A DNA stretch of 64,000 bases from an uncultured delta proteobacterium (GCA_963706575.1 CAVPNL010000001.1:384001-448000); one strand, 5' to 3'. Positions 1 to 21,000 are shown, counted from the first letter of the stretch. Program-made: the numbers.

Positions 1-3000
1 TTTTTAGATCATCCGGCAGAGAGTTCCAGGTTTCCATGTTCATCAGGATGTGTCCGGGAACCACGTCGTTTTGCCCGCCCAGTATTCGGTAGGGTGCGAC
101 CTCATGCCATTTGAGACCGGTTACGGCACTCACATCCCACTGGGAGGCATCGATGGTGCCCAGCTTGAGGCCCATATAAGCTTCCATGCCGCTAATATTC
201 GTTCCGCGAGCGCCTAATGCATTGTAATAATCGGCCCAGGATCCCTCAACCCTGAATTTTAGTCCCTTCATGTCCGCACAAGAGGTGATTTTTTTGGTGG
301 ACAAGGTGAAAAGCGGTCCGTAGGAATGGACATCCAGCCAATAGAGCCCCTGTTTGGCGTATTCCTTGCGCAGCAGATCCGCAAACCCGGTTTCCAAAAA
401 GAAGCTGCGAATTGCTTCCCCGGCCTGGTATACATCCGGTTCTCCGGGAAGGTTATAGGCATAGGGCAGGCCGAATTCCACTTCACCCACCGGAACGATA
501 CCGCCCCACATGGCAGCCACTGCATGCAGCATGGTCAGCGTGCCTTTCTTGGTCGCTTCGAAGAGCTGTTCACCGGGAACCAGCTCCGGATCGGCAAACA
601 CCTGGATTTTGATGCGCCCTTTGCTGAGTTTATCCGCAGTCGCTGCAAATTCTTTTAATAACTCCATGGAAAGATCGCCGCGCGGATAGGCAGATTGAAT
701 CTTCATGCGATAAACTTTTTCGGCTGCGTCGGCAGTTAAACTTCCAAAGGTGATACTGATGACAAAAAATGCCCTATCAGTAAAGCGCCGAGCAGAAATA
801 CTTTTTTCGCTTTCATATCTTACCTCCTTATTTGATAATTAATGCGTAATTTCAGAAATTGATTTTCTAATTTATCACCCCCCTTGCAATTAAATGAAAC
901 CCCACAGATATCTACCTGTTTATTAGGCTGTCGTTGGAAATGAACTTAAAAATGCGTGAATATGAATATGCATCATTGATGACAGGGCGGCCACCAGTGC
1001 TGCTCTGCCAATTTGGATCTGCTATATGAATTGTGGTTGCGCTGAATCTATCTGCTTTCAGAAGATTAAGCCTTACGACGAATGAAATTTATTATCTGAT
1101 TTGAGAAAATATATTTAAATTCGTTTATTTCATATCCGCGGCATCTATGTCAACCGGGAAGTTCGGTAGGAGCCGACCACTGCGTCGGCTTCAATTTCCA
1201 CCAGATGATCCGGACGGGCCAGGGCCTTTACTTCTGCCATGGTAATCACGGGCCGGATCTCTTTAAACCATTCAGAGTAAGCTTTAATGTATTCCTGCCC
1301 CCTGGTGATATCGGTGACGTAAAAACGGACTCTGACCACATCCGAGATTCTGGCACCGGCCCGCTTCAACACCGCTTCAATTTTCTGTAGAATTATTTTG
1401 GTTTGCAGATAGGCATCGCCGACGCCCTCTACCTCACCCTCAGCGTTGGTGGTCGTTGTTCCGCCCACAAAGACCATATTTCCGACCCTCACCGCGCGGC
1501 TGTAACCGGCTTTTTCCTCAAAAGGTGCACCGGATGAAAAATTTTGTCTTTTTAATAAATCCATTGCTCGGCTGCCGCCCTTTCAGTCATACAATCCGGA
1601 TTCCTTATCCTCTGACTTTGAAATCTTATGCCCTTTTTTCAGTCCCATAGCGGTATCGCAGATCATCGGTCATCACGCAGCGTCGAATCTGGGTAAATAT
1701 TCTGGGCCGGGTGTGTCCTTCGCCATTGGTGGCGATATGAAATGAAACAAATCCTTCACCGGTAACGCCAACGCCGCCGAGGCCGCAGGCCCCATTTTTA
1801 ACAAATGAGGCACAGCGCGCTTTGCTGGCCATTTTCTGGATGTTGGTAATGCTGTTGGAATGGATGGCCATGGTGTGGCCCATATTTTGCTCGGCGGCCA
1901 ATGCCCATTCGATGGCCTGATCGACATTCGCACAACGGACCAGTGGCAGGACCGGCATAATCTGTTCGGTCCAAACCAGGGGATGATTTTGGTCGGTTTC
2001 CAGAATGACGATTTGGGCATCGTTTCCCACTTCCAGGCCGATGGAGTTGAGTATGAATCCCGGCGTTTTGCCGATAAAGTCCATATTAATAACGCCCGGT
2101 TCAGCCGGTCCTTTGACTTCCTTGAAGATATGTTTGAGCAGCTTTTTGCCCTGATCCGCAGAAATTTCGTAGGCGCCGTATTTTTTTAGATGTTCTTTAA
2201 GTTGTTCCGCCGCGGATTCAACGACAAAAATTTCCTTTTCACTGGCGCAGGCGGTACAATTTGAAAAGGAAGCGCCCTGGATAATGCATTTTGCTGCACG
2301 GTCCAGATCCGCTGTTTCGTCAACCACAACCGGAGGATTACCGGGCCCACCGGCGATAACGCGTTTGCCGGTTGAGGTCGCAAAGTCGACCACCCCATGG
2401 CCGCCGGTTACCGCAATCATGCCGACGTCTGGATGGGTCATCAGCTCTTGGGCGGAGGGCACCGTCGGTTCTTCCAGGCAGCAGATGCAATTTGGCGGTC
2501 CCCCGGCGTTTACGATGGCATGGTTCAGATCCCGAATGACGCGGGCGGATACCTTCTTAGTTTTGGGGTGAGGATTATCGATTACCGTGTTGCCGCCGGA
2601 CATCATCATAATGGCATTGAAAATTATGGTGGGAGCGCCGTTGGTGACCGGATTAACCGAGGCAATCACGCCGATCGGCAGTCGTTCTATAATGGTGACA
2701 CCCTTATCACCGGCATAGACCTCGGGAGTTAGATCCTCCATTCCCGGCACATTGCAGGCAGAGCGGACCTTGGCCACATTGTCGTCCGGTTTGCCCAGCC
2801 CGGTTTCTTCAAATTCCATGCGGCCGTATTCATCAGCATTGGCCAGACCGGTTTCGCGAATGGCCTGGATGAACCTCCGGCGGTCTTCAACCGGTGCATC
2901 CAACAGTTTTTTCTGAGCGCTGACAGCCGCATTTATGCAGGTTCCCATGTCCCGGAAAACGCCGTCGCCTGCAGCCGGCTTTTTTTTAGAGGGATTTTCC

Positions 3001-18000: not shown

Positions 18001-21000
18001 TTCAAGGCCCAGTTCGATAAAGGTATTCTGAAGCAGTCGCAGCATACCTTGTGGGTCAACAAGCGGGTTTACCTGGTAGACGCAGGAAGGGCTGGTATTG
18101 TAAGACTGGCCGTCAGCATCGCCACCCTGGTTGAAAAGAAAAAATTCGAGCTCCGAGGCTGCTACGGGGTCCAGTTTCAGGTCCTGATATTGTTTTATAA
18201 TGCGCTGCAAAACATAACGCGGATCCATGGGCAGGGGTTCTCCGTCAGGCCCATAGGTGTTGCCGATGAAACGAGCAGTGCCCTCCAAATGCGGCAAGAC
18301 AGCAAAGGTATTCAGATCCGGTTTGACCGTCATGTCGCGCCATTGGATTTCATCTCCCACCCCGGAGCCCATGGCCACATCATTGGCAAAATCAATCGCA
18401 TAGGTGGCCTGAACGTGCTGCACACCTTCTTCGATCATTTCTTCCAGTCGACCGGCCGGAATGAGCTTGCTGCGACATATACCGTGAAGATCAGGAAAAT
18501 CAACGCGCAGGGAATCCACATTTGCCGCTATAATTCTCTCCTTAATCTGCTTAAGGTCCATATTCCCCCCTTTCTGAGGAAGCATGAATGATGTTCATAT
18601 AATAAATATTTCTAATCAATTGGGACGAACTGATGTAATTGATCATTCATAATGGGGCTTGATATGTAATATCTCATTCATTTTCTTGAGTCAAGTAAAA
18701 TTTGAGGTTCCATGTTCAATTGACAATACTTAAATTAAAAGTTTTGAATAATTATATATTATACTGTAATAATTAATAAAATATTTTATAGGCCTAAAGA
18801 TAGAACATGCAGAATTGAGAAAAGTATTGACTATTTTTCCTGGGAATTATTACTAGAACCGGGTAGAATCCAGATAGGAACGAAAACGACTTGAGCAAAA
18901 CCAAGGCAAAAAGTGGAAAAGTTTCACATTGGAGGTAAGTCATGCATGACAACCGAATGGCGGTTATCGGAATAGGGGCTACCGGGACGGTTTTGGCTGC
19001 GATGCTTTTGCGTAACTATCCCGACACCTTTCTTATCGGCAGCACCCCGGCTTTGGGTGAAAAGCTGAGTAGAAAGGGTATTTTTGTTTCAGGCGAAATT
19101 TCTTGTAAAGCCTCAGTCAAAAATTATTCCTGTCAAATCGGATCTCTTAAAGATTTCAGACCGTCTTCAATCTTTCTGACCACTAAAACCTTTCACCTGG
19201 AAGGAATTCTCAATCACCTGCGAACGGTGTTTGAGCCCGGAATGAAAATAATTTCCTGTCAGAACGGATTGGGACCTGAGGATCTTGTCGCGGATCGATT
19301 CGGCCGGGATTCGACCCTGCGAATGTCGCTAAATTATGGCGTATCATTGAAGCGTGCCGCAGAAGCTCAAGTCACTTTTTTCAATCGGCCCAATCATTTA
19401 GGCAGCCTGTCGGGGGTAAATCAAAACCTGGGGCTACAACTCGCTGATCGGATCAGCGGCTGCGGATTGGAAACCGAACTTGTTGATGACATAAAATTAT
19501 TTGTATGGAAAAAAATGATTATGAAATGTACCATGGCGTCAATATGTGCGGTGACAGATAAGACCATCAAGGAAGCTTTGGAATATCCGCCCACACGGGA
19601 AATCGCAGATGCCTGCTTTAAGGAAGCCCTCGCGGTTGCCAGGGCAATGGGCTATGACCTGGGAGAAGATTACCTCCAACAGGCGCTCGGCTATCTGCAA
19701 AAGGTCGGCATCCATAAAGATTCGATGTGCAATGATATCGAAAACAAAACGCCAACCGAAATTGATTTTTTGGGCGCCAAAGTCGTCGAGTATGCGCGCC
19801 TCAAAGGGATTTCAACCCCATTTTATGCCACCATGACCAACCTGGTTAAGGCGATTGAAAGTAATTATTTGGAGAAGTAAACGTTTCAAACAATAGCTAG
19901 TTTTTTCCTCATTCTGTAATTTTCCAGGACTTGCCCTAAGGTACCTCCGACGCTTTCATTCGTGCACATTGGTTGAGAATTTTTAGAGATGCTACCCATG
20001 GCCTTGTCTTTGAAAGAAAATCTTGACCCCAAATTTGGTATACAGTATACAAAACTCTTCAGGTGATCCTAAAAAACGTTATCCTTTTATTTTTGGTTTA
20101 GCCAAAAGGCATTGCGATGAATGAAAACTCAATTATGGACCAGCTGGTGTATGATTCTGCCTCCGGCGCATTGACTTACCGAGATATCAGGTATGTGGTC
20201 ATCCGTCCTGAGACGATTGTCGGTTTTCAGAAAACCATAGAAAAACACAGCCGGAAGGGGGCTCAGGATGCCCTGTTTCAAGGAGGCTATCAGGGGGGAT
20301 ATCTCTCGGCCAAAAAATTCAAAGAAATGCAAAACCTTTCAGACAGTGAGACCATCAACTTTATGATGACCATGGGGGCTGAAATCGGATGGGGACATTT
20401 TCAACTGATAGATTATGATTTTGAAAACGACAAATTGCAAATCAAGGTTGAAAATTCTGCTTTTGCAGAAGCATACGGTGAATCAACGGAAGGTGTGTGT
20501 CATTTAATCAACGGCGTGCTCAGCGGCCTTGCCACAGTTCTTTTTGGGCGCAATTGTATGGGTTCCGAAATCGAGTGTTTGGCCAAGGGGGATAAGCATT
20601 GTGTTTTTCACATCAGATAAAAGGGGTTTCCAATGATCCGGTCTATGAATATTGCCTGGTGGGTGCAACGCTGGAGTGATCTGCATCCGGACAAACCGGC
20701 TGTCATTTTTGAAGAAGAACAAATTTCCTATTCCGAACTGAACCAACGTGCCAATCGGGCCAGTTGCTGGTTGCAGTCGTTGGGAATCGAAAAAGGCGAT
20801 CGCGTGACGGTTATGCTGAACAACTGCCCTGAGTTTCTTGAACTTTTCCTGGCCTGCGCACGGCTGGGGGCCATTTTTGTGCCGCTTAATTTTCGGTCGG
20901 CCCCCCCGGAGCTGGATTATTTTCTTAAAAACTGTCGTCCCCGGCTGTTTGTATTCGGACACGAATTTATGGATAACGTAAAAAAACTGGATTTTGAAAA

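Follow-up and report, generated by a model that had tools for sequence, protein, structure and literature searches.

We propose, with moderate confidence, that the 'signature enzyme' missing from MIC6 microcompartments is a conserved multi-enzyme amine-oxidation module that would reach an aldehyde by way of an N-substituted glutamate. In the window (the whole 64,000-nucleotide stretch analysed, C1:384001-448000, along which positions are counted), which comes from a bacterium of the sulfate-reducer type, shell and enzyme genes are interleaved in a single co-directional cluster on the minus strand (1145-18585). The cluster combines a full MIC6 shell set, PduS, EutJ and an acylating aldehyde dehydrogenase (AldDH) with an enzyme module consisting of a GS-like ligase, a split trio resembling GOGAT or N-methylglutamate (NMG) synthase, a five-protein flavo-FeS dehydrogenase of the HcnABC/proline dehydrogenase type, and RidA (Table 1). 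All shell and enzyme genes listed in the first-pass annotation were found at their given location, all on the minus strand; of the cluster it had drawn at 1145..18561 the gene content stands but not the end at 1145, as TRAP transporter genes continue co-directionally past the left window edge.

Table 1. Genes of the cluster in operon order, from the GS-like ligase to RidA, and the adjoining transporter gene; positions count along the window.
Feature	Position	Strand	Match
GS-like ATP-dependent ligase, 454 aa, proposed gamma-glutamyl-amide synthetase	17221..18585	-	Pfam Gln-synt_C 344 bits
Class-II (Ntn) glutamine-amidotransferase-like subunit (MgsA/GlxB-like)	16283..17183	-	Pfam GATase_6/7; frameshifted
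GXGXG subunit (MgsB/GlxC-like)	15594..16358	-	Pfam GXGXG 77.8 bits
FMN subunit (MgsC/GlxD-like), CxxCxxCxxxxC motif	14284..15594	-	Pfam Glu_synthase 337 bits
Fer2_4 [2Fe-2S] subunit (HcnA/SoxA-N-like)	13925..14254	-	Pfam Fer2_4 98 bits
Pyr_redox_2 flavoprotein subunit (HcnB/OoxA/SoxA-middle-like)	12834..13928	-	Pfam; NCBIfam soxA 132 bits
4Fe-4S dicluster ferredoxin subunit (Fer4)	12331..12834	-	Pfam Fer4_7/Fer4_21
BMC-H shell hexamer protein	12025..12306	-	Pfam BMC 95 bits
GrpU-type permuted BMC-H	11470..11946	-	Pfam BMC 36 bits, residues 95-154
BMC-P pentamer protein	11126..11419	-	Pfam EutN_CcmL 90.6 bits
PduS-like FMN/Fe-S electron-transfer protein	9792..11129	-	Pfam Complex1_51K, Fer4_17, RnfC_N, SLBB
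PduT-type tandem BMC-T	9225..9779	-	Pfam, two BMC domains, 152 bits; TIGR02526 134 bits
EutJ-like actin-fold ATPase	8389..9228	-	NF011660 EutJ 309 bits, above cut-off 182
278-aa accessory protein (TIGR02536-like), N-terminal amphipathic helix and linker	7513..8349	-	TIGR02536 eut_hyp 51.8 bits, below cut-off 152.6
CcmP-like double-stacking BMC-T, copy 1	6701..7318	-	NF053796 237 bits, below cut-off 340
Fer2_BFD + SO_alpha_A3 subunit (BFD), N-terminal shell-type extension of ~140 aa	6008..6688	-	Pfam, residues 145-224
DAO-family FAD dehydrogenase (catalytic subunit)	4712..5917	-	Pfam DAO 243 bits
CcmP-like BMC-T, copy 2	4088..4708	-	NF053796 236 bits
RpiR-family regulator (HTH_6 + SIS)	3141..4064	-	Pfam
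Acylating AldDH, N-terminal EP-type tag	1626..3086	-	NF011927 525 bits, above cut-off 403; Aldedh domain from residue 45
RidA-family imine/enamine deaminase	1145..1564	-	Pfam Ribonuc_L-PSP 94 bits
DctP, TRAP solute-binding protein, 5' part	1..706 (gene continues to window -241)	-	Pfam DctP

The MIC6 shell and terminal extensions

By its sequence the locus is a MIC6-type metabolosome, agreeing feature by feature with the description by Sutter, whose catalogue includes a GrpU-type BMC-Hp of 99 amino acids and takes as a MIC6 marker a DAO protein with a C-terminal four-cysteine tail. The earlier assignment to MIC6 is upheld, with the shell set as catalogued, a pfam04324 protein, an AldDH with an N-terminal helix and a DAO protein whose four cysteines (residues 370-401) lie outside the region alignable to shell-less homologues. 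BMC-H and the first CcmP-like copy are 78-95% and 74-89% identical to their orthologues respectively; the GrpU-type protein, for which the orthologue alignment begins only at residues 36-49, has its probable start at Met56 (about 11781). No Pfam match was obtained for the 278-aa protein. The position of RpiR is unchanged in G005, G012, G013 and G041-G045, and one AldDH orthologue lies next to the locus in 5/5 genomes searched. PduL was not found in the genome (91.8% complete) and there is no alcohol dehydrogenase within the locus, which leaves cofactor recycling without an explanation and counts against the main reading.

Compared with shell-less homologues, extensions made up of a helix and a linker are confined to AldDH, the BFD protein and the 278-aa protein, the last of these also exceeding every other protein of the set in N-terminal hydrophobic moment (0.77, residues 4-18). 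In all ten MIC6 loci aligned, the extension of the BFD protein comprises a 45-amino-acid domain and an amphipathic helix, both conserved, with a linker between them that varies; it is missing from the Clostridia homologue (113-121 amino acids). Alignment and helix analysis therefore bear out the targeting-type extensions previously reported for AldDH and the BFD protein. The GS-like ligase and the trio lack such extensions, so that a cytosolic location is possible for them; which enzymes sit inside the shell is an inference.

Ligase, trio, dehydrogenase and transporter

The ligase had been annotated as GmaS-like, and of this the GS family membership stands but a specific likeness to GmaS is not supported. 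Its N-terminal GS domain is under the Pfam cut-off and the whole protein is under all three curated cut-offs (TIGR03105, 313 bits against 470; GlnA, 320 against 429; GGputSyn, 256 against 650); among solved structures it matches true GS at about 250 bits and glutamate-methylamine ligases at 215 and 180 bits, and so is at least as near to true GS as to GmaS. Similarly, the trio retains its likeness to MgsABC/GlxBCD: its FMN subunit shares 47% identity with the one in the Rhizobium phaseoli NMG cluster and 30% with the GOGAT-like paralogue encoded elsewhere in this genome. The FMN subunit is nevertheless not a plain MgsC because of its Cys4 motif, which recurs in 50/50 related loci but is lacking in the Rhizobium protein, the only canonical subunit of an NMG synthase in the comparison. 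This motif sits where GOGAT binds its Fe-S cluster, and it would fit an electron-consuming GOGAT-like reaction better than a redox-neutral NMG synthase. The GXGXG subunit is 32% identical to its Rhizobium homologue and aligns with shell-less homologues from residue 22 (16295), probably its true start. In the assembly a single additional base near 16905, absent from the contigs of four public runs, splits the amidotransferase gene into two open reading frames that are out of phase with each other (16899-17183 and 16283-17005); the homologues of this gene form a continuous frame in 42/43 related loci and have Cys1 in 41/41.

The dehydrogenase had been assigned to the NMG pathway. Comparison with fused homologues supports a single enzyme with genes split either side of the shell block: the Pyr_redox_2 subunit aligns with residues 7-366 of fused Pyr_redox_2+BFD proteins in shell-less loci, residues 142-225 of the BFD subunit align with the domain at the C-terminus of HcnB-like fusion proteins, and the Fer4 subunit is homologous to a C-terminal domain borne by DAO in SAR324-type loci and by Pyr_redox_2 in Clostridia. 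The Fer2_4 subunit is 67% identical to its Clostridia shell-less homologue. An orthology to MgdABCD is not sustained, as the dehydrogenase has no folate domain and the identity of DAO to the SoxB-type subunit of Rhizobium is only 25%. Among solved structures DAO comes closest to 1y56_B (195 bits), with glycine oxidase (122) and SoxB (95) behind it; we take 1y56_B to be the L-proline dehydrogenase beta subunit of Pyrococcus horikoshii.

Beyond the left edge of the window, DctP is followed by DctQ and DctM (Pfam) and then by an acetylene-hydratase-like Mo/W (molybdopterin) enzyme. DctP orthologues (65-87% identity) adjoin the locus in 7/8 loci examined downstream, and the protein here keeps the equivalent of Arg-147, the carboxylate-binding arginine. 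An arginine of this kind in a conserved TRAP binding protein suggests that the imported substrate is probably an acid-bearing amine; the primary amine postulated earlier is thus kept as an amine but not as a simple alkylamine. A second frameshift of the assembly falls in the DctP signal-peptide region, at a T6 run near 767-772. The two frameshifts may mean that the pathway does not function in this organism, or they may be errors of assembly.

Conservation and shell-less relatives

A search with another query, the FMN subunit, retrieved 52 loci and again shows the reported linkage of enzyme and shell genes: the GS-like gene is present in 32/34 with at least 4.5 kb upstream, BMC-H is adjacent in 38/43 with at least 3 kb downstream, and a DAO orthologue at 70% identity or more lies within the flank in 24/35 with at least 9.8 kb downstream. 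Among 41 related genomes a DAO orthologue occurs in 11, nine of which also have a GXGXG orthologue, a gene found in none of the 30 without DAO. The order from GS to RidA is identical in G005.

Contiguous modules without a shell, also noted before, were recovered in five of the 52 loci and in 2/301 Clostridia genomes, seven in all. The Clostridia order is GS, trio, Fer2_4, Pyr_redox_2+Fer4, BFD, DAO and RidA, the last immediately after DAO rather than after AldDH as in MIC6 loci; in SAR324, UBA5680 and Chloroflexi it is GS, trio, Fer2_4, Pyr_redox_2+BFD and DAO+Fer4, followed by an aldehyde:ferredoxin oxidoreductase. The SAR324-type dehydrogenase halves share only 30-38% identity with their counterparts in this cluster and may be non-orthologous. 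In the four shell-less versions examined this tungsten-type oxidoreductase replaces shell and AldDH, which lends independent support to the aldehyde product proposed at the outset. Immediately upstream of one SAR324 locus lie genes that score above the cut-offs for S-(hydroxymethyl)glutathione dehydrogenase and S-formylglutathione hydrolase.

Gamma-glutamyl-amine intermediates, likewise suggested earlier, are supported by neighbours of two unrelated families that cleave gamma-glutamyl-amides, in some relatives only: class-I GATase/Peptidase_C26-like genes (G012, G041 and G044 by Pfam, G013 by tblastn) and a GGACT-like gene adjoining the module in G174. The Peptidase_C26-like hydrolase lies downstream of AldDH in these four of nine loci (not in G000, G005, G042, G043 or G045) and was not found in this genome. 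The flank of G023, as read from ORF starts alone, has a class-III aminotransferase-like gene and a Pot-type ABC system.

A proposed route to the aldehyde and its alternatives

We propose that the TRAP system would import an amine, probably with an acid group, which the GS-like ligase would couple to glutamate at the expense of ATP; the resulting gamma-glutamyl-amide would be cleaved by the trio's Ntn-amidotransferase subunit and the amine handed to the FMN subunit to form an N-substituted glutamate. The complex of DAO, Fer2_BFD-A3, Pyr_redox_2, Fer2_4 and Fer4 would then oxidize the C-N bond on the substituent side, RidA would accelerate hydrolysis of the imine to glutamate and aldehyde, and the EP-tagged AldDH would convert the aldehyde to acyl-CoA inside the shell, with electrons leaving via PduS and the Fe-S shell proteins (PduT- and GrpU-type). 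Gene content, conservation, split and fused architectures and extensions are as observed above; every chemical step, including the N-alkylglutamate mechanism, is predicted from them. If the proposal is true, an orphan organelle type present in dozens of species gains a testable function; in the literature no paper was found connecting the MIC6 shell with an amine-oxidation module. Against it stand the scores of the GS-like protein, the Cys4 motif and the nearest solved relative of DAO, and a tunnel-fed amidotransferase would suit small amines, yet the TRAP arginine suggests an acid-bearing substrate.

Another possibility, which we consider rather unlikely but by no means negligible, is a nitrogen and electron sink, in which the DAO complex would oxidize an imported amine or amino acid directly to an imine, RidA would release aldehyde and ammonia, and a true glutamine synthetase and a split Fe-S GOGAT would use up the ammonia and two electrons. 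Its net reaction is that of the main route (amine + 2-oxoglutarate + ATP to aldehyde + glutamate). The Cys4 motif and the match to solved true GS would fit such a sink, as would the contiguous and overlapping FMN, Fer2_4, Pyr_redox_2 and Fer4 genes; RidA classically accompanies flavin amino-acid oxidases. However, the N-terminal domain of the GS-like protein is unconserved, it has another sequence where the GlnA of this genome has the 'FDGSS' loop, its score is below the GlnA cut-off, the FMN subunit is nearer to the NMG type than to the GOGAT-like paralogue, the hydrolase-like neighbours suggest gamma-glutamyl-amines and not glutamine, and the genome has a separate housekeeping glnA (contig C6) and GOGAT-like genes elsewhere.

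It is improbable that the pathway is instead Puu-like, the ligase gamma-glutamylating a diamine or diamino acid so as to mask one of its amino groups, DAO oxidizing the other to an aldehyde for AldDH, and the Peptidase_C26-like hydrolase then removing glutamate while the trio only recycles nitrogen. GS-like protein, DAO, AldDH and that hydrolase do parallel PuuA, PuuB, PuuC and PuuD, whose functions underlie this comparison; GGputSyn is among the ligase's matches, and the aminotransferase-like and Pot-type genes beside G023 would be in keeping with it. The GGputSyn score is nevertheless far under its cut-off, the hydrolase has the patchy distribution given above, and no role is left for the universally conserved trio. 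We think it very improbable that the DAO complex is a proline-type dehydrogenase of cyclic secondary amines, the compartment handling a ring-opened semialdehyde and the ligase and trio serving glutamate/glutamine turnover: similarity to 1y56_B at the 195-bit level leaves the substrate unfixed and, compatible as the TRAP arginine is with an imino acid, the co-inheritance of ligase and trio with the dehydrogenase (32/34 loci, 7/7 shell-less versions) is not accounted for. That enzyme and shell genes are mere neighbours without a common function is close to refuted, even though a quick tree does not settle how often they were joined, since dehydrogenase genes flank the shell block on both sides, the conserved BFD extension is absent from shell-less homologues and the two gene sets co-occur across 41 genomes and 52 loci.

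The proposed route through an N-substituted glutamate is in keeping with the NMG-type cluster of Rhizobium phaseoli, which contains the same triad as here: ligase, trio and Sox-like dehydrogenase.

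Gene content of the locus and its relation to MIC6

From window position 18585 to 1145 every gene lies on the minus strand, with junctions that are short or overlapping (see table). The first-pass annotation had described here microcompartment shell genes in one cluster with an amine-oxidation module. Its gene inventory was right, as Pfam and NCBIfam assignments bear out every part that it listed, including the acylating aldehyde dehydrogenase (AldDH; NF011927, 525 bits, above the cut-off). The association is real and conserved and can be extended: the cluster is longer than first reported, with TRAP transporter genes (dctP, dctQ, dctM) and a 752-aa molybdopterin enzyme on the same strand to the left of the window, which spans C1:384001-448000. 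All BMC-domain matches of the genome fall within this locus. Below, 'ligase' denotes the GS-like protein, 'trio' the split amidotransferase, GXGXG and FMN subunits, 'DAO' the pfam01266 flavoprotein and 'BFD protein' the Fer2_BFD+SO_alpha_A3 protein.

Features of the locus, its surroundings and related loci (negative positions lie left of the window; L and G numbers are compared loci and genomes)
Feature	Position	Strand	Remark
Operon order 1-7: GS-like ligase, class-II amidotransferase, GXGXG, FMN Glu_synthase, Fer2_4, Pyr_redox_2 flavoprotein, 4Fe-4S dicluster protein		minus	Pfam and NCBIfam
Operon order 8-14: BMC-H, permuted (GrpU-type) BMC-H, BMC-P, PduS, PduT-type BMC-T, EutJ, 278-aa TIGR02536-like protein		minus	Pfam and NCBIfam
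Operon order 15-21: CcmP-like BMC-T, Fer2_BFD+SO_alpha_A3, DAO flavoprotein, second CcmP-like BMC-T, RpiR, acylating AldDH, RidA		minus	Pfam and NCBIfam
Extra base in amidotransferase gene	window 16899-16910		near 16905
DctP	window -241..706	minus
Frame shift in dctP	window 760-816	minus	T6 at 767-772
bis-MGD (molybdopterin) enzyme, 752 aa	L001:13106-15364 (window -4894..-2636)	minus	co-directional, after TRAP genes
ApbA/PanE-family reductase	window 18942-19880	+	divergent from ligase gene
Acyl-CoA metabolism cluster (1): V4R protein, acyl-CoA synthetase, acyl-CoA dehydrogenase, two SDRs	window 20117-30319
Acyl-CoA metabolism cluster (2): two MaoC dehydratases, thiolase, carboxyl transferase, family III CoA-transferase	window 20117-30319
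Junction of CcmP-like BMC-T and BFD genes	window 6688-6701		12 bp
Second BMC-H gene in relatives	L004:16670-16942; L010:8765-9037
Inverted repeat, 12-bp stem	window 7485-7516		in 195-bp gap
Shared motif, BFD protein	window 6554-6688		first ~45 residues
Shared motif, 278-aa protein	window 7513-7660		last ~45 residues
Liv-type ABC transporter genes in relatives	L047:1556-6722; L058:1406-6609; L056:3460-6807		co-directional with ligase
Genes between RidA and TRAP genes in G012	L004:5113-8538
Rearranged locus of G023	G023:C1:4292001-4326000 (L008/L009); G023:C1:1385001-1405000 (L002)		one complete genome

The MIC6 entry in the supplementary catalogue of Sutter et al. (2021; PMC8217296, Supplementary Data 2) has three loci from anaerobic Deltaproteobacteria. 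The enzymes in that entry are an AldDH with an N-terminal encapsulation peptide, a pfam04324 protein and a pfam01266 protein with a 30-aa C-terminal extension bearing four cysteines, and its shell includes two BMC-H and a single BMC-P, as well as two CcmP-like BMC-Tdp proteins. With catalogued MIC6 the window has in common two CcmP-like BMC-T, a PduT-type BMC-T, a GrpU-type BMC-H, BMC-H, BMC-P and PduS, the three enzymes, and a deltaproteobacterial host. Its pfam04324 domain (Fer2_BFD) scored 54.6 bits with Pfam; its DAO protein has four cysteines within residues 370-401, beyond the part aligned to shell-less homologs; and in the AldDH an amphipathic helix (residues 8-22) and a linker, noticed in the first pass, precede an Aldedh domain that begins at residue 45 and constitute a candidate targeting peptide. 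Every item of the catalogue entry is matched apart from the number of canonical BMC-H genes, one in the window against two in the catalogue and in relatives. In relatives the first CcmP-like BMC-T gene is separated from the BFD gene by a second BMC-H gene; in the window the two adjoin, and a second BMC-H is absent from the whole genome. No ligase, trio, further dehydrogenase subunits, RidA or transporter figure in the catalogue entry; the cluster described here has all of them. Of the metabolosome core in the Kerfeld model (AldDH, phosphotransacylase and alcohol dehydrogenase) the AldDH is present; PF06130 gave no match in the genome (91.8% complete) and the locus encodes no alcohol dehydrogenase, which is consistent with an 'incomplete core' label.

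An Rfam search of window 1-19500 (E<=1) for riboswitches returned three chance-level matches only, and promoter and terminator scans gave counts no higher than shuffled sequence. RNA runs covered small parts of the stretch only. The longest terminator-like hairpin in that scan, which was at chance level overall, is the inverted repeat between the genes for the 278-aa protein and the BMC-T.

The amidotransferase gene is split by one extra base, which lies in a cluster of three differences from contigs of four public runs. Those contigs, from three studies, lack the extra base and each have 11-21 other differences from the window, so they represent other strains. In 42 of 43 related loci the amidotransferase is a continuous ORF, the exception being L055. 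The DctP signal peptide is likewise in another frame than the mature part, with the shift at six consecutive T. Given two frameshifts within 20 kb, either the assembly may contain errors or the locus may be decaying.

Conservation of the module with and without a shell

Orthologs of DAO (at least 85% identity) were found in 11 of 41 related genomes, two of them as fragments, and of GXGXG in nine, all among those 11 and none among the 30 genomes without a DAO ortholog; as the 41 are kin, these counts are not independent. The two genomes with DAO but without GXGXG are 74% and 87% complete. The entire GS-to-RidA order stands on one contig in one relative (G005), and the GS-to-EutJ order runs up to the contig end in a member of another family (G034). 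Five further genomes all have the second BMC-T followed by RpiR, AldDH and RidA, with the AldDH ortholog present as a single copy beside the locus.

With the FMN subunit as query, 52 loci were recovered from species-representative genomes, mostly of Desulfobacterales, the rest including Syntrophobacteraceae, Desulfatiglandales, Desulfarculia and an Olavius-associated 'Delta 1' bacterium. By tblastn, the ligase was found in 32 of the 34 loci with 4.5 kb or more upstream (the exceptions, L014 and L050, are both rearranged), an adjacent BMC-H in 38 of the 43 with at least 3 kb downstream, and a DAO ortholog within the flank in 24 of the 35 with at least 9.8 kb downstream; the other 11 include shell-less loci and loci where extra genes move DAO past the flank. 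One complete genome, G023, was left out of the evidence. Its main locus is rearranged, with the ligase and the amidotransferase N-terminus not found there, beside a masked stretch and a 765-aa ORF; a BFD fragment, DAO, BMC-T and RpiR lie 2.9 Mb from the main part. Judged from ORF starts only, a class-III aminotransferase-like gene and a Pot-type ABC system come after that main part.

Shell genes are missing from five of the 52 loci: L036 (UBA5680), L037 (SAR324), L038, L039 and L043 (Chloroflexi). The order in L036, L037 and L043 (from Pfam) and in L038 (from tblastn) is ligase, amidotransferase, GXGXG, FMN, Fer2_4, a fused Pyr_redox_2+Fer2_BFD+SO_alpha_A3 protein and a fused DAO+Fer4 protein, and the next gene in the first three encodes an aldehyde:ferredoxin oxidoreductase (AOR; AFOR_N/AFOR_C, Pfam). 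An ABC or APC transporter is also encoded at these loci, and directly upstream in L037 are an S-(hydroxymethyl)glutathione dehydrogenase (720 bits) and an S-formylglutathione hydrolase (415 bits), both above cut-offs. Where SAR324-type loci lack the shell and AldDH, the next enzyme after the module is one that also oxidises aldehydes but belongs to a different family, which provides independent support for an aldehyde product. AOR is also encoded upstream in L025, a MIC6 locus. A closer shell-less version was recovered in two of 301 Clostridia genomes (G145 and G174). It starts with the ligase and trio (FMN subunit 70-71% identical to that of the window), continues with Fer2_4 (67%) and a 528-aa Pyr_redox_2 protein fused to Fer4 (57-60%), and ends with a BFD protein of 113-121 aa, a 377-aa DAO (43%) and RidA (52%); an APC permease and a CN_hydrolase are encoded upstream. 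A single insertion of the shell into the module was considered as the order of events and set aside, the backbone of a quick tree being unresolved.

The fused forms also clarify the dehydrogenase. By BLAST, the window Pyr_redox_2 protein corresponds to residues 7-366 of the fused shell-less protein, residues 142-225 of the BFD protein to its residues 382-465, and the Fer4 protein to the Fer4 domain of DAO+Fer4. DAO and Fer2_BFD, the marker proteins of MIC6, therefore belong to a single multi-subunit dehydrogenase, the genes for which flank the shell block on both sides. Pfam finds all the domains of an HcnABC/OoxAB/PDH1-type enzyme, Fer2_4, Pyr_redox_2(+BFD) and DAO, and the best solved match of DAO is 1y56_B. 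The Pyr_redox_2 protein scored 132 bits with the NCBIfam soxA model, and GltD models matched at the FAD motif only (~54 bits). SoxD, SoxG and a GCV_T-type domain, the marks of a SoxBDAG-like MgdABCD enzyme, were found in no protein of the locus.

Comparison with shell-less homologs also bears on what the shell may enclose. The ligase and the three trio proteins have no extensions, and the BFD protein is longer at its N-terminus by about 140 residues, in agreement with the first-pass report of an N-terminal segment missing from the shell-less homologue. In all ten MIC6 loci aligned this segment has a conserved 45-aa domain, which a variable linker of low complexity joins to a conserved amphipathic helix, and then a second linker. 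The 278-aa protein, like the AldDH, begins with an amphipathic helix followed by a linker. A hydrophobic-moment scan by itself does not discriminate, and the argument for targeting rests on the extensions, which lead us to place the dehydrogenase and AldDH, by inference, in the lumen; the ligase and trio may act in the cytosol. The two-part layout of the BFD extension recalls the EutQ N-terminus, in which, according to the portion of PMC12487888 on that region, H1/H2 bind the shell and H3/H4 bind cargo peptides; the likeness is one of layout only. By eye, the start of the BFD protein and the end of the 278-aa protein share a hydrophobic strand and the motif 'P.G..(I/L)(S/T)..A.DL(I/A)K(E/D)..I.I', which may be a repeated shell- or cargo-binding domain.

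Transport, flanking genes and the substrate

Orthologs of DctPQM (65-92% identity) adjoin the locus in seven of the eight loci readable downstream (G000, G012, G013, G041, G042, G044 and G045) and are not beside it in G043; the contig of G005 stops at RidA. In the binding protein, 'GLKFRVEG' aligns with 'GLKLRVPN' of SiaP, so that the equivalent of Arg-147 is kept. In the account of DctP proteins given by Fischer et al. (2015; PMC4646407), this arginine occurs in 96.8% of them and selects carboxylate, more rarely sulfonate or phosphate, ligands, and the ethanolamine-binding Csal_0678 lacks it. On this basis the imported compound is more likely to bear an acid group than to be a bare alkylamine, and the substrate of the pathway is probably an acid-bearing molecule. 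The solved relatives of the TRAP binding protein are distant (at most 81 bits) and bind lactate, pyruvate, sialic acid or ethanolamine, and allowed no assignment; nor did the SAR324-type ABC binding protein, with a single weak PDB match. By BLAST the latter shows no relation to the Liv-type ABC binding protein that tblastn located upstream in six MIC6 loci. In a subclade a Liv-type ABC transporter is encoded directly upstream of the ligase.

The best solved match of the bis-MGD enzyme is acetylene hydratase (2e7z; 424 bits, full length), and a formate dehydrogenase is not supported. Acetylene hydratase itself is not supported either, with Trp at the Asp13 position and Ala for the third Fe-S Cys; the metal-ligand Cys is kept. 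L018, L022 and L025 have homologs (39-40% identity), with a Fer4_11 protein, upstream of the ligase in divergent orientation. The ApbA/PanE-family gene keeps its position in four other loci (L013, L015, L017 and L059), and its product could be an aldehyde or oxo-acid reductase tied to the pathway. Use of the acyl-CoA by the neighbouring beta-oxidation-like genes (19-30 kb) was rejected, as these are not kept beside other MIC6 loci, where the ApbA-like gene alone recurs. In G012, one of the same-genus relatives, a cyclophilin-like/DUF3830 protein, an OYE-family flavoenzyme, a second RidA and a Nitro_FeMo-Co-domain protein are encoded between RidA and the TRAP genes, and a second AldDH is present as well; the Nitro_FeMo-Co protein was found again in G042 and G044.

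The proposed reaction and its relation to known systems

The first-pass annotation saw in this cluster homologues of the whole N-methylglutamate (NMG) pathway. Judged from sequence, the system is like that pathway in outline; the ligase model and the type of dehydrogenase did not hold, and a redox-relevant motif of the FMN subunit differs. The reference was the Rhizobium phaseoli pRphaBra5c cluster (soxBDAG-like genes, glxA, trio, glnT and purU), with whose homologs the FMN subunit shares 47%, the amidotransferase 37% and GXGXG 32% identity; the ligase is 32.5% identical to GlnT and DAO 24.6% to the SoxB-type subunit. The genome's own GlnA and GOGAT-like genes are both on another contig (C6), and their products are 31.8% and 30% identical to the ligase and FMN subunit respectively. 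The ligase scored 312.9 bits with the GmaS/GlnT-type model TIGR03105 (cut-off 469.6) and fell under every curated NCBIfam cut-off. Among solved proteins it matched true GS at ~250 bits, glutamate-methylamine ligase at 215 and GmaS at 180, and its N-terminal domain is divergent, with the 'FDGSS' loop of GlnA replaced. The trio has the three-subunit architecture of MgsABC, for which no curated model was available. A CxxCxxCxxxxC motif, at a position that we take to be the site of the GOGAT 3Fe-4S cluster, occurs in the FMN subunit of the window and in 50 of 50 related subunits, whereas the Rhizobium subunit has no cysteine there.

This motif, together with the contiguous genes for FMN, Fer2_4, Pyr_redox_2 and Fer4 proteins, is compatible with two readings. 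In one, the trio would be a reductive N-substituted-glutamate synthase. In the other, GS and GOGAT would be genuine and serve as a sink for the ammonia and electrons that a direct amine dehydrogenase releases. The net reaction is the same in both: amine + 2-oxoglutarate + ATP -> aldehyde + glutamate. Of the interpretation put forward in the first pass, then, the amine-to-aldehyde function appears well supported by the comparative evidence, and the N-alkylglutamate mechanism is the best-supported reading, as yet unproven.

Genes near the module in some relatives support gamma-glutamyl-amines as intermediates. By Pfam, G012 and G041 have a class-I GATase/Peptidase_C26-like gene that separates RidA from the TRAP genes, and in G044 such a gene comes right behind the TRAP genes; G013 has the same synteny by tblastn. 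In G174, RidA is followed by a GGACT-like protein (44.7 bits). PuuD-type Peptidase_C26 enzymes and GGACT have gamma-glutamyl-amines as substrates. The Peptidase_C26-like hydrolase was found in some relatives only and not in this genome, and is therefore accessory; the ligase scored 256 bits with the GGputSyn model for PuuA (cut-off 650).

For the N-alkylglutamate mechanism we can also sketch a fuller scheme, speculative and in our judgement rather unlikely in its entirety. MIC6 would enclose an N-substituted-glutamate dehydrogenase and the acylating AldDH; outside, the Fe-S trio would reductively couple the amine to 2-oxoglutarate, and the two electrons from the substrate would return to the trio via the PduT- and GrpU-type Fe-S shell proteins and PduS. 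If true, this would be a 'transamination' driven by ATP and independent of PLP, with electrons looping across the shell and the aldehyde confined; it would be the first organelle for amine dehydrogenation and the first case of a GOGAT relative serving as an opine-type synthase.

The main text of Sutter et al. (2021; PMC8217296) states that MIC2-7 lack any obvious enzyme to generate an aldehyde, and for many other catalogued metabolosomes none is known; one of these types now gains a concrete, conserved candidate. The candidate is a nine-to-ten-gene amine-oxidation module, not a single signature enzyme, and also exists without a shell. Among open-access papers and bioRxiv we found none that draws this connection between MIC6 and an amine-oxidation module. 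If the candidate is correct, amine dehydrogenation via a glutamate carrier would join the short list of bacterial microcompartment chemistries, and the module would define an anaerobic, Fe-S-dependent relative of the NMG pathway and point to a hitherto unrecognised sink, in sulfate reducers of marine and estuarine sediments (a gutless-worm symbiont among them), for nitrogenous osmolytes or for amines that resemble amino acids.

Several known systems share parts of this design. The Puu pathway and the gamma-glutamylethanolamide routes of Chromohalobacter and Streptomyces, as described in the relevant parts of PMC6529630 and PMC4646407, have a GS-like ligase, oxidation to the aldehyde level and an AldDH, as in the window, and a gamma-glutamyl hydrolase-like protein in common with its relatives; a TRAP system beside a gamma-glutamylation-type ligase also has precedent there. 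Unlike the window locus, they are described with no GOGAT-like trio and no shell, and the Chromohalobacter TRAP binding protein lacks the arginine kept here. HcnABC, OoxAB and the archaeal L-proline dehydrogenase PDH1 (PDB 1Y56) have the same Fer2_4, Pyr_redox_2(+Fer2_BFD) and DAO subunits, in the gene order of the shell-less loci, whereas the window enzyme is encoded by five genes around the shell block and carries additional Fer4 and 4-Cys elements as well as an extension of shell type. The split GOGAT of archaea and anaerobes resembles the trio in its amidotransferase, GXGXG and FMN parts and in the presumed Fe-S motif, but no protein here is recognisably of GltD type, the genome's own GOGAT-like protein is a remote relative, and the trio is co-inherited with an amine dehydrogenase and with enzymes that oxidise aldehydes. 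With the NMG pathway (GmaS/GlnT, MgsABC/GlxBCD and MgdABCD) the module shares the triad of GS-like ligase, split GltB-like three-subunit enzyme and Sox-family dehydrogenase; it differs in the Cys4 motif, the sub-threshold ligase, the absence of purU and a dehydrogenase of HcnABC/PDH type with Fe-S subunits in place of SoxD, SoxG and the folate-binding domain. As the module is tied to AldDH or AOR, a free aldehyde is to be expected, unlike in the NMG pathway.
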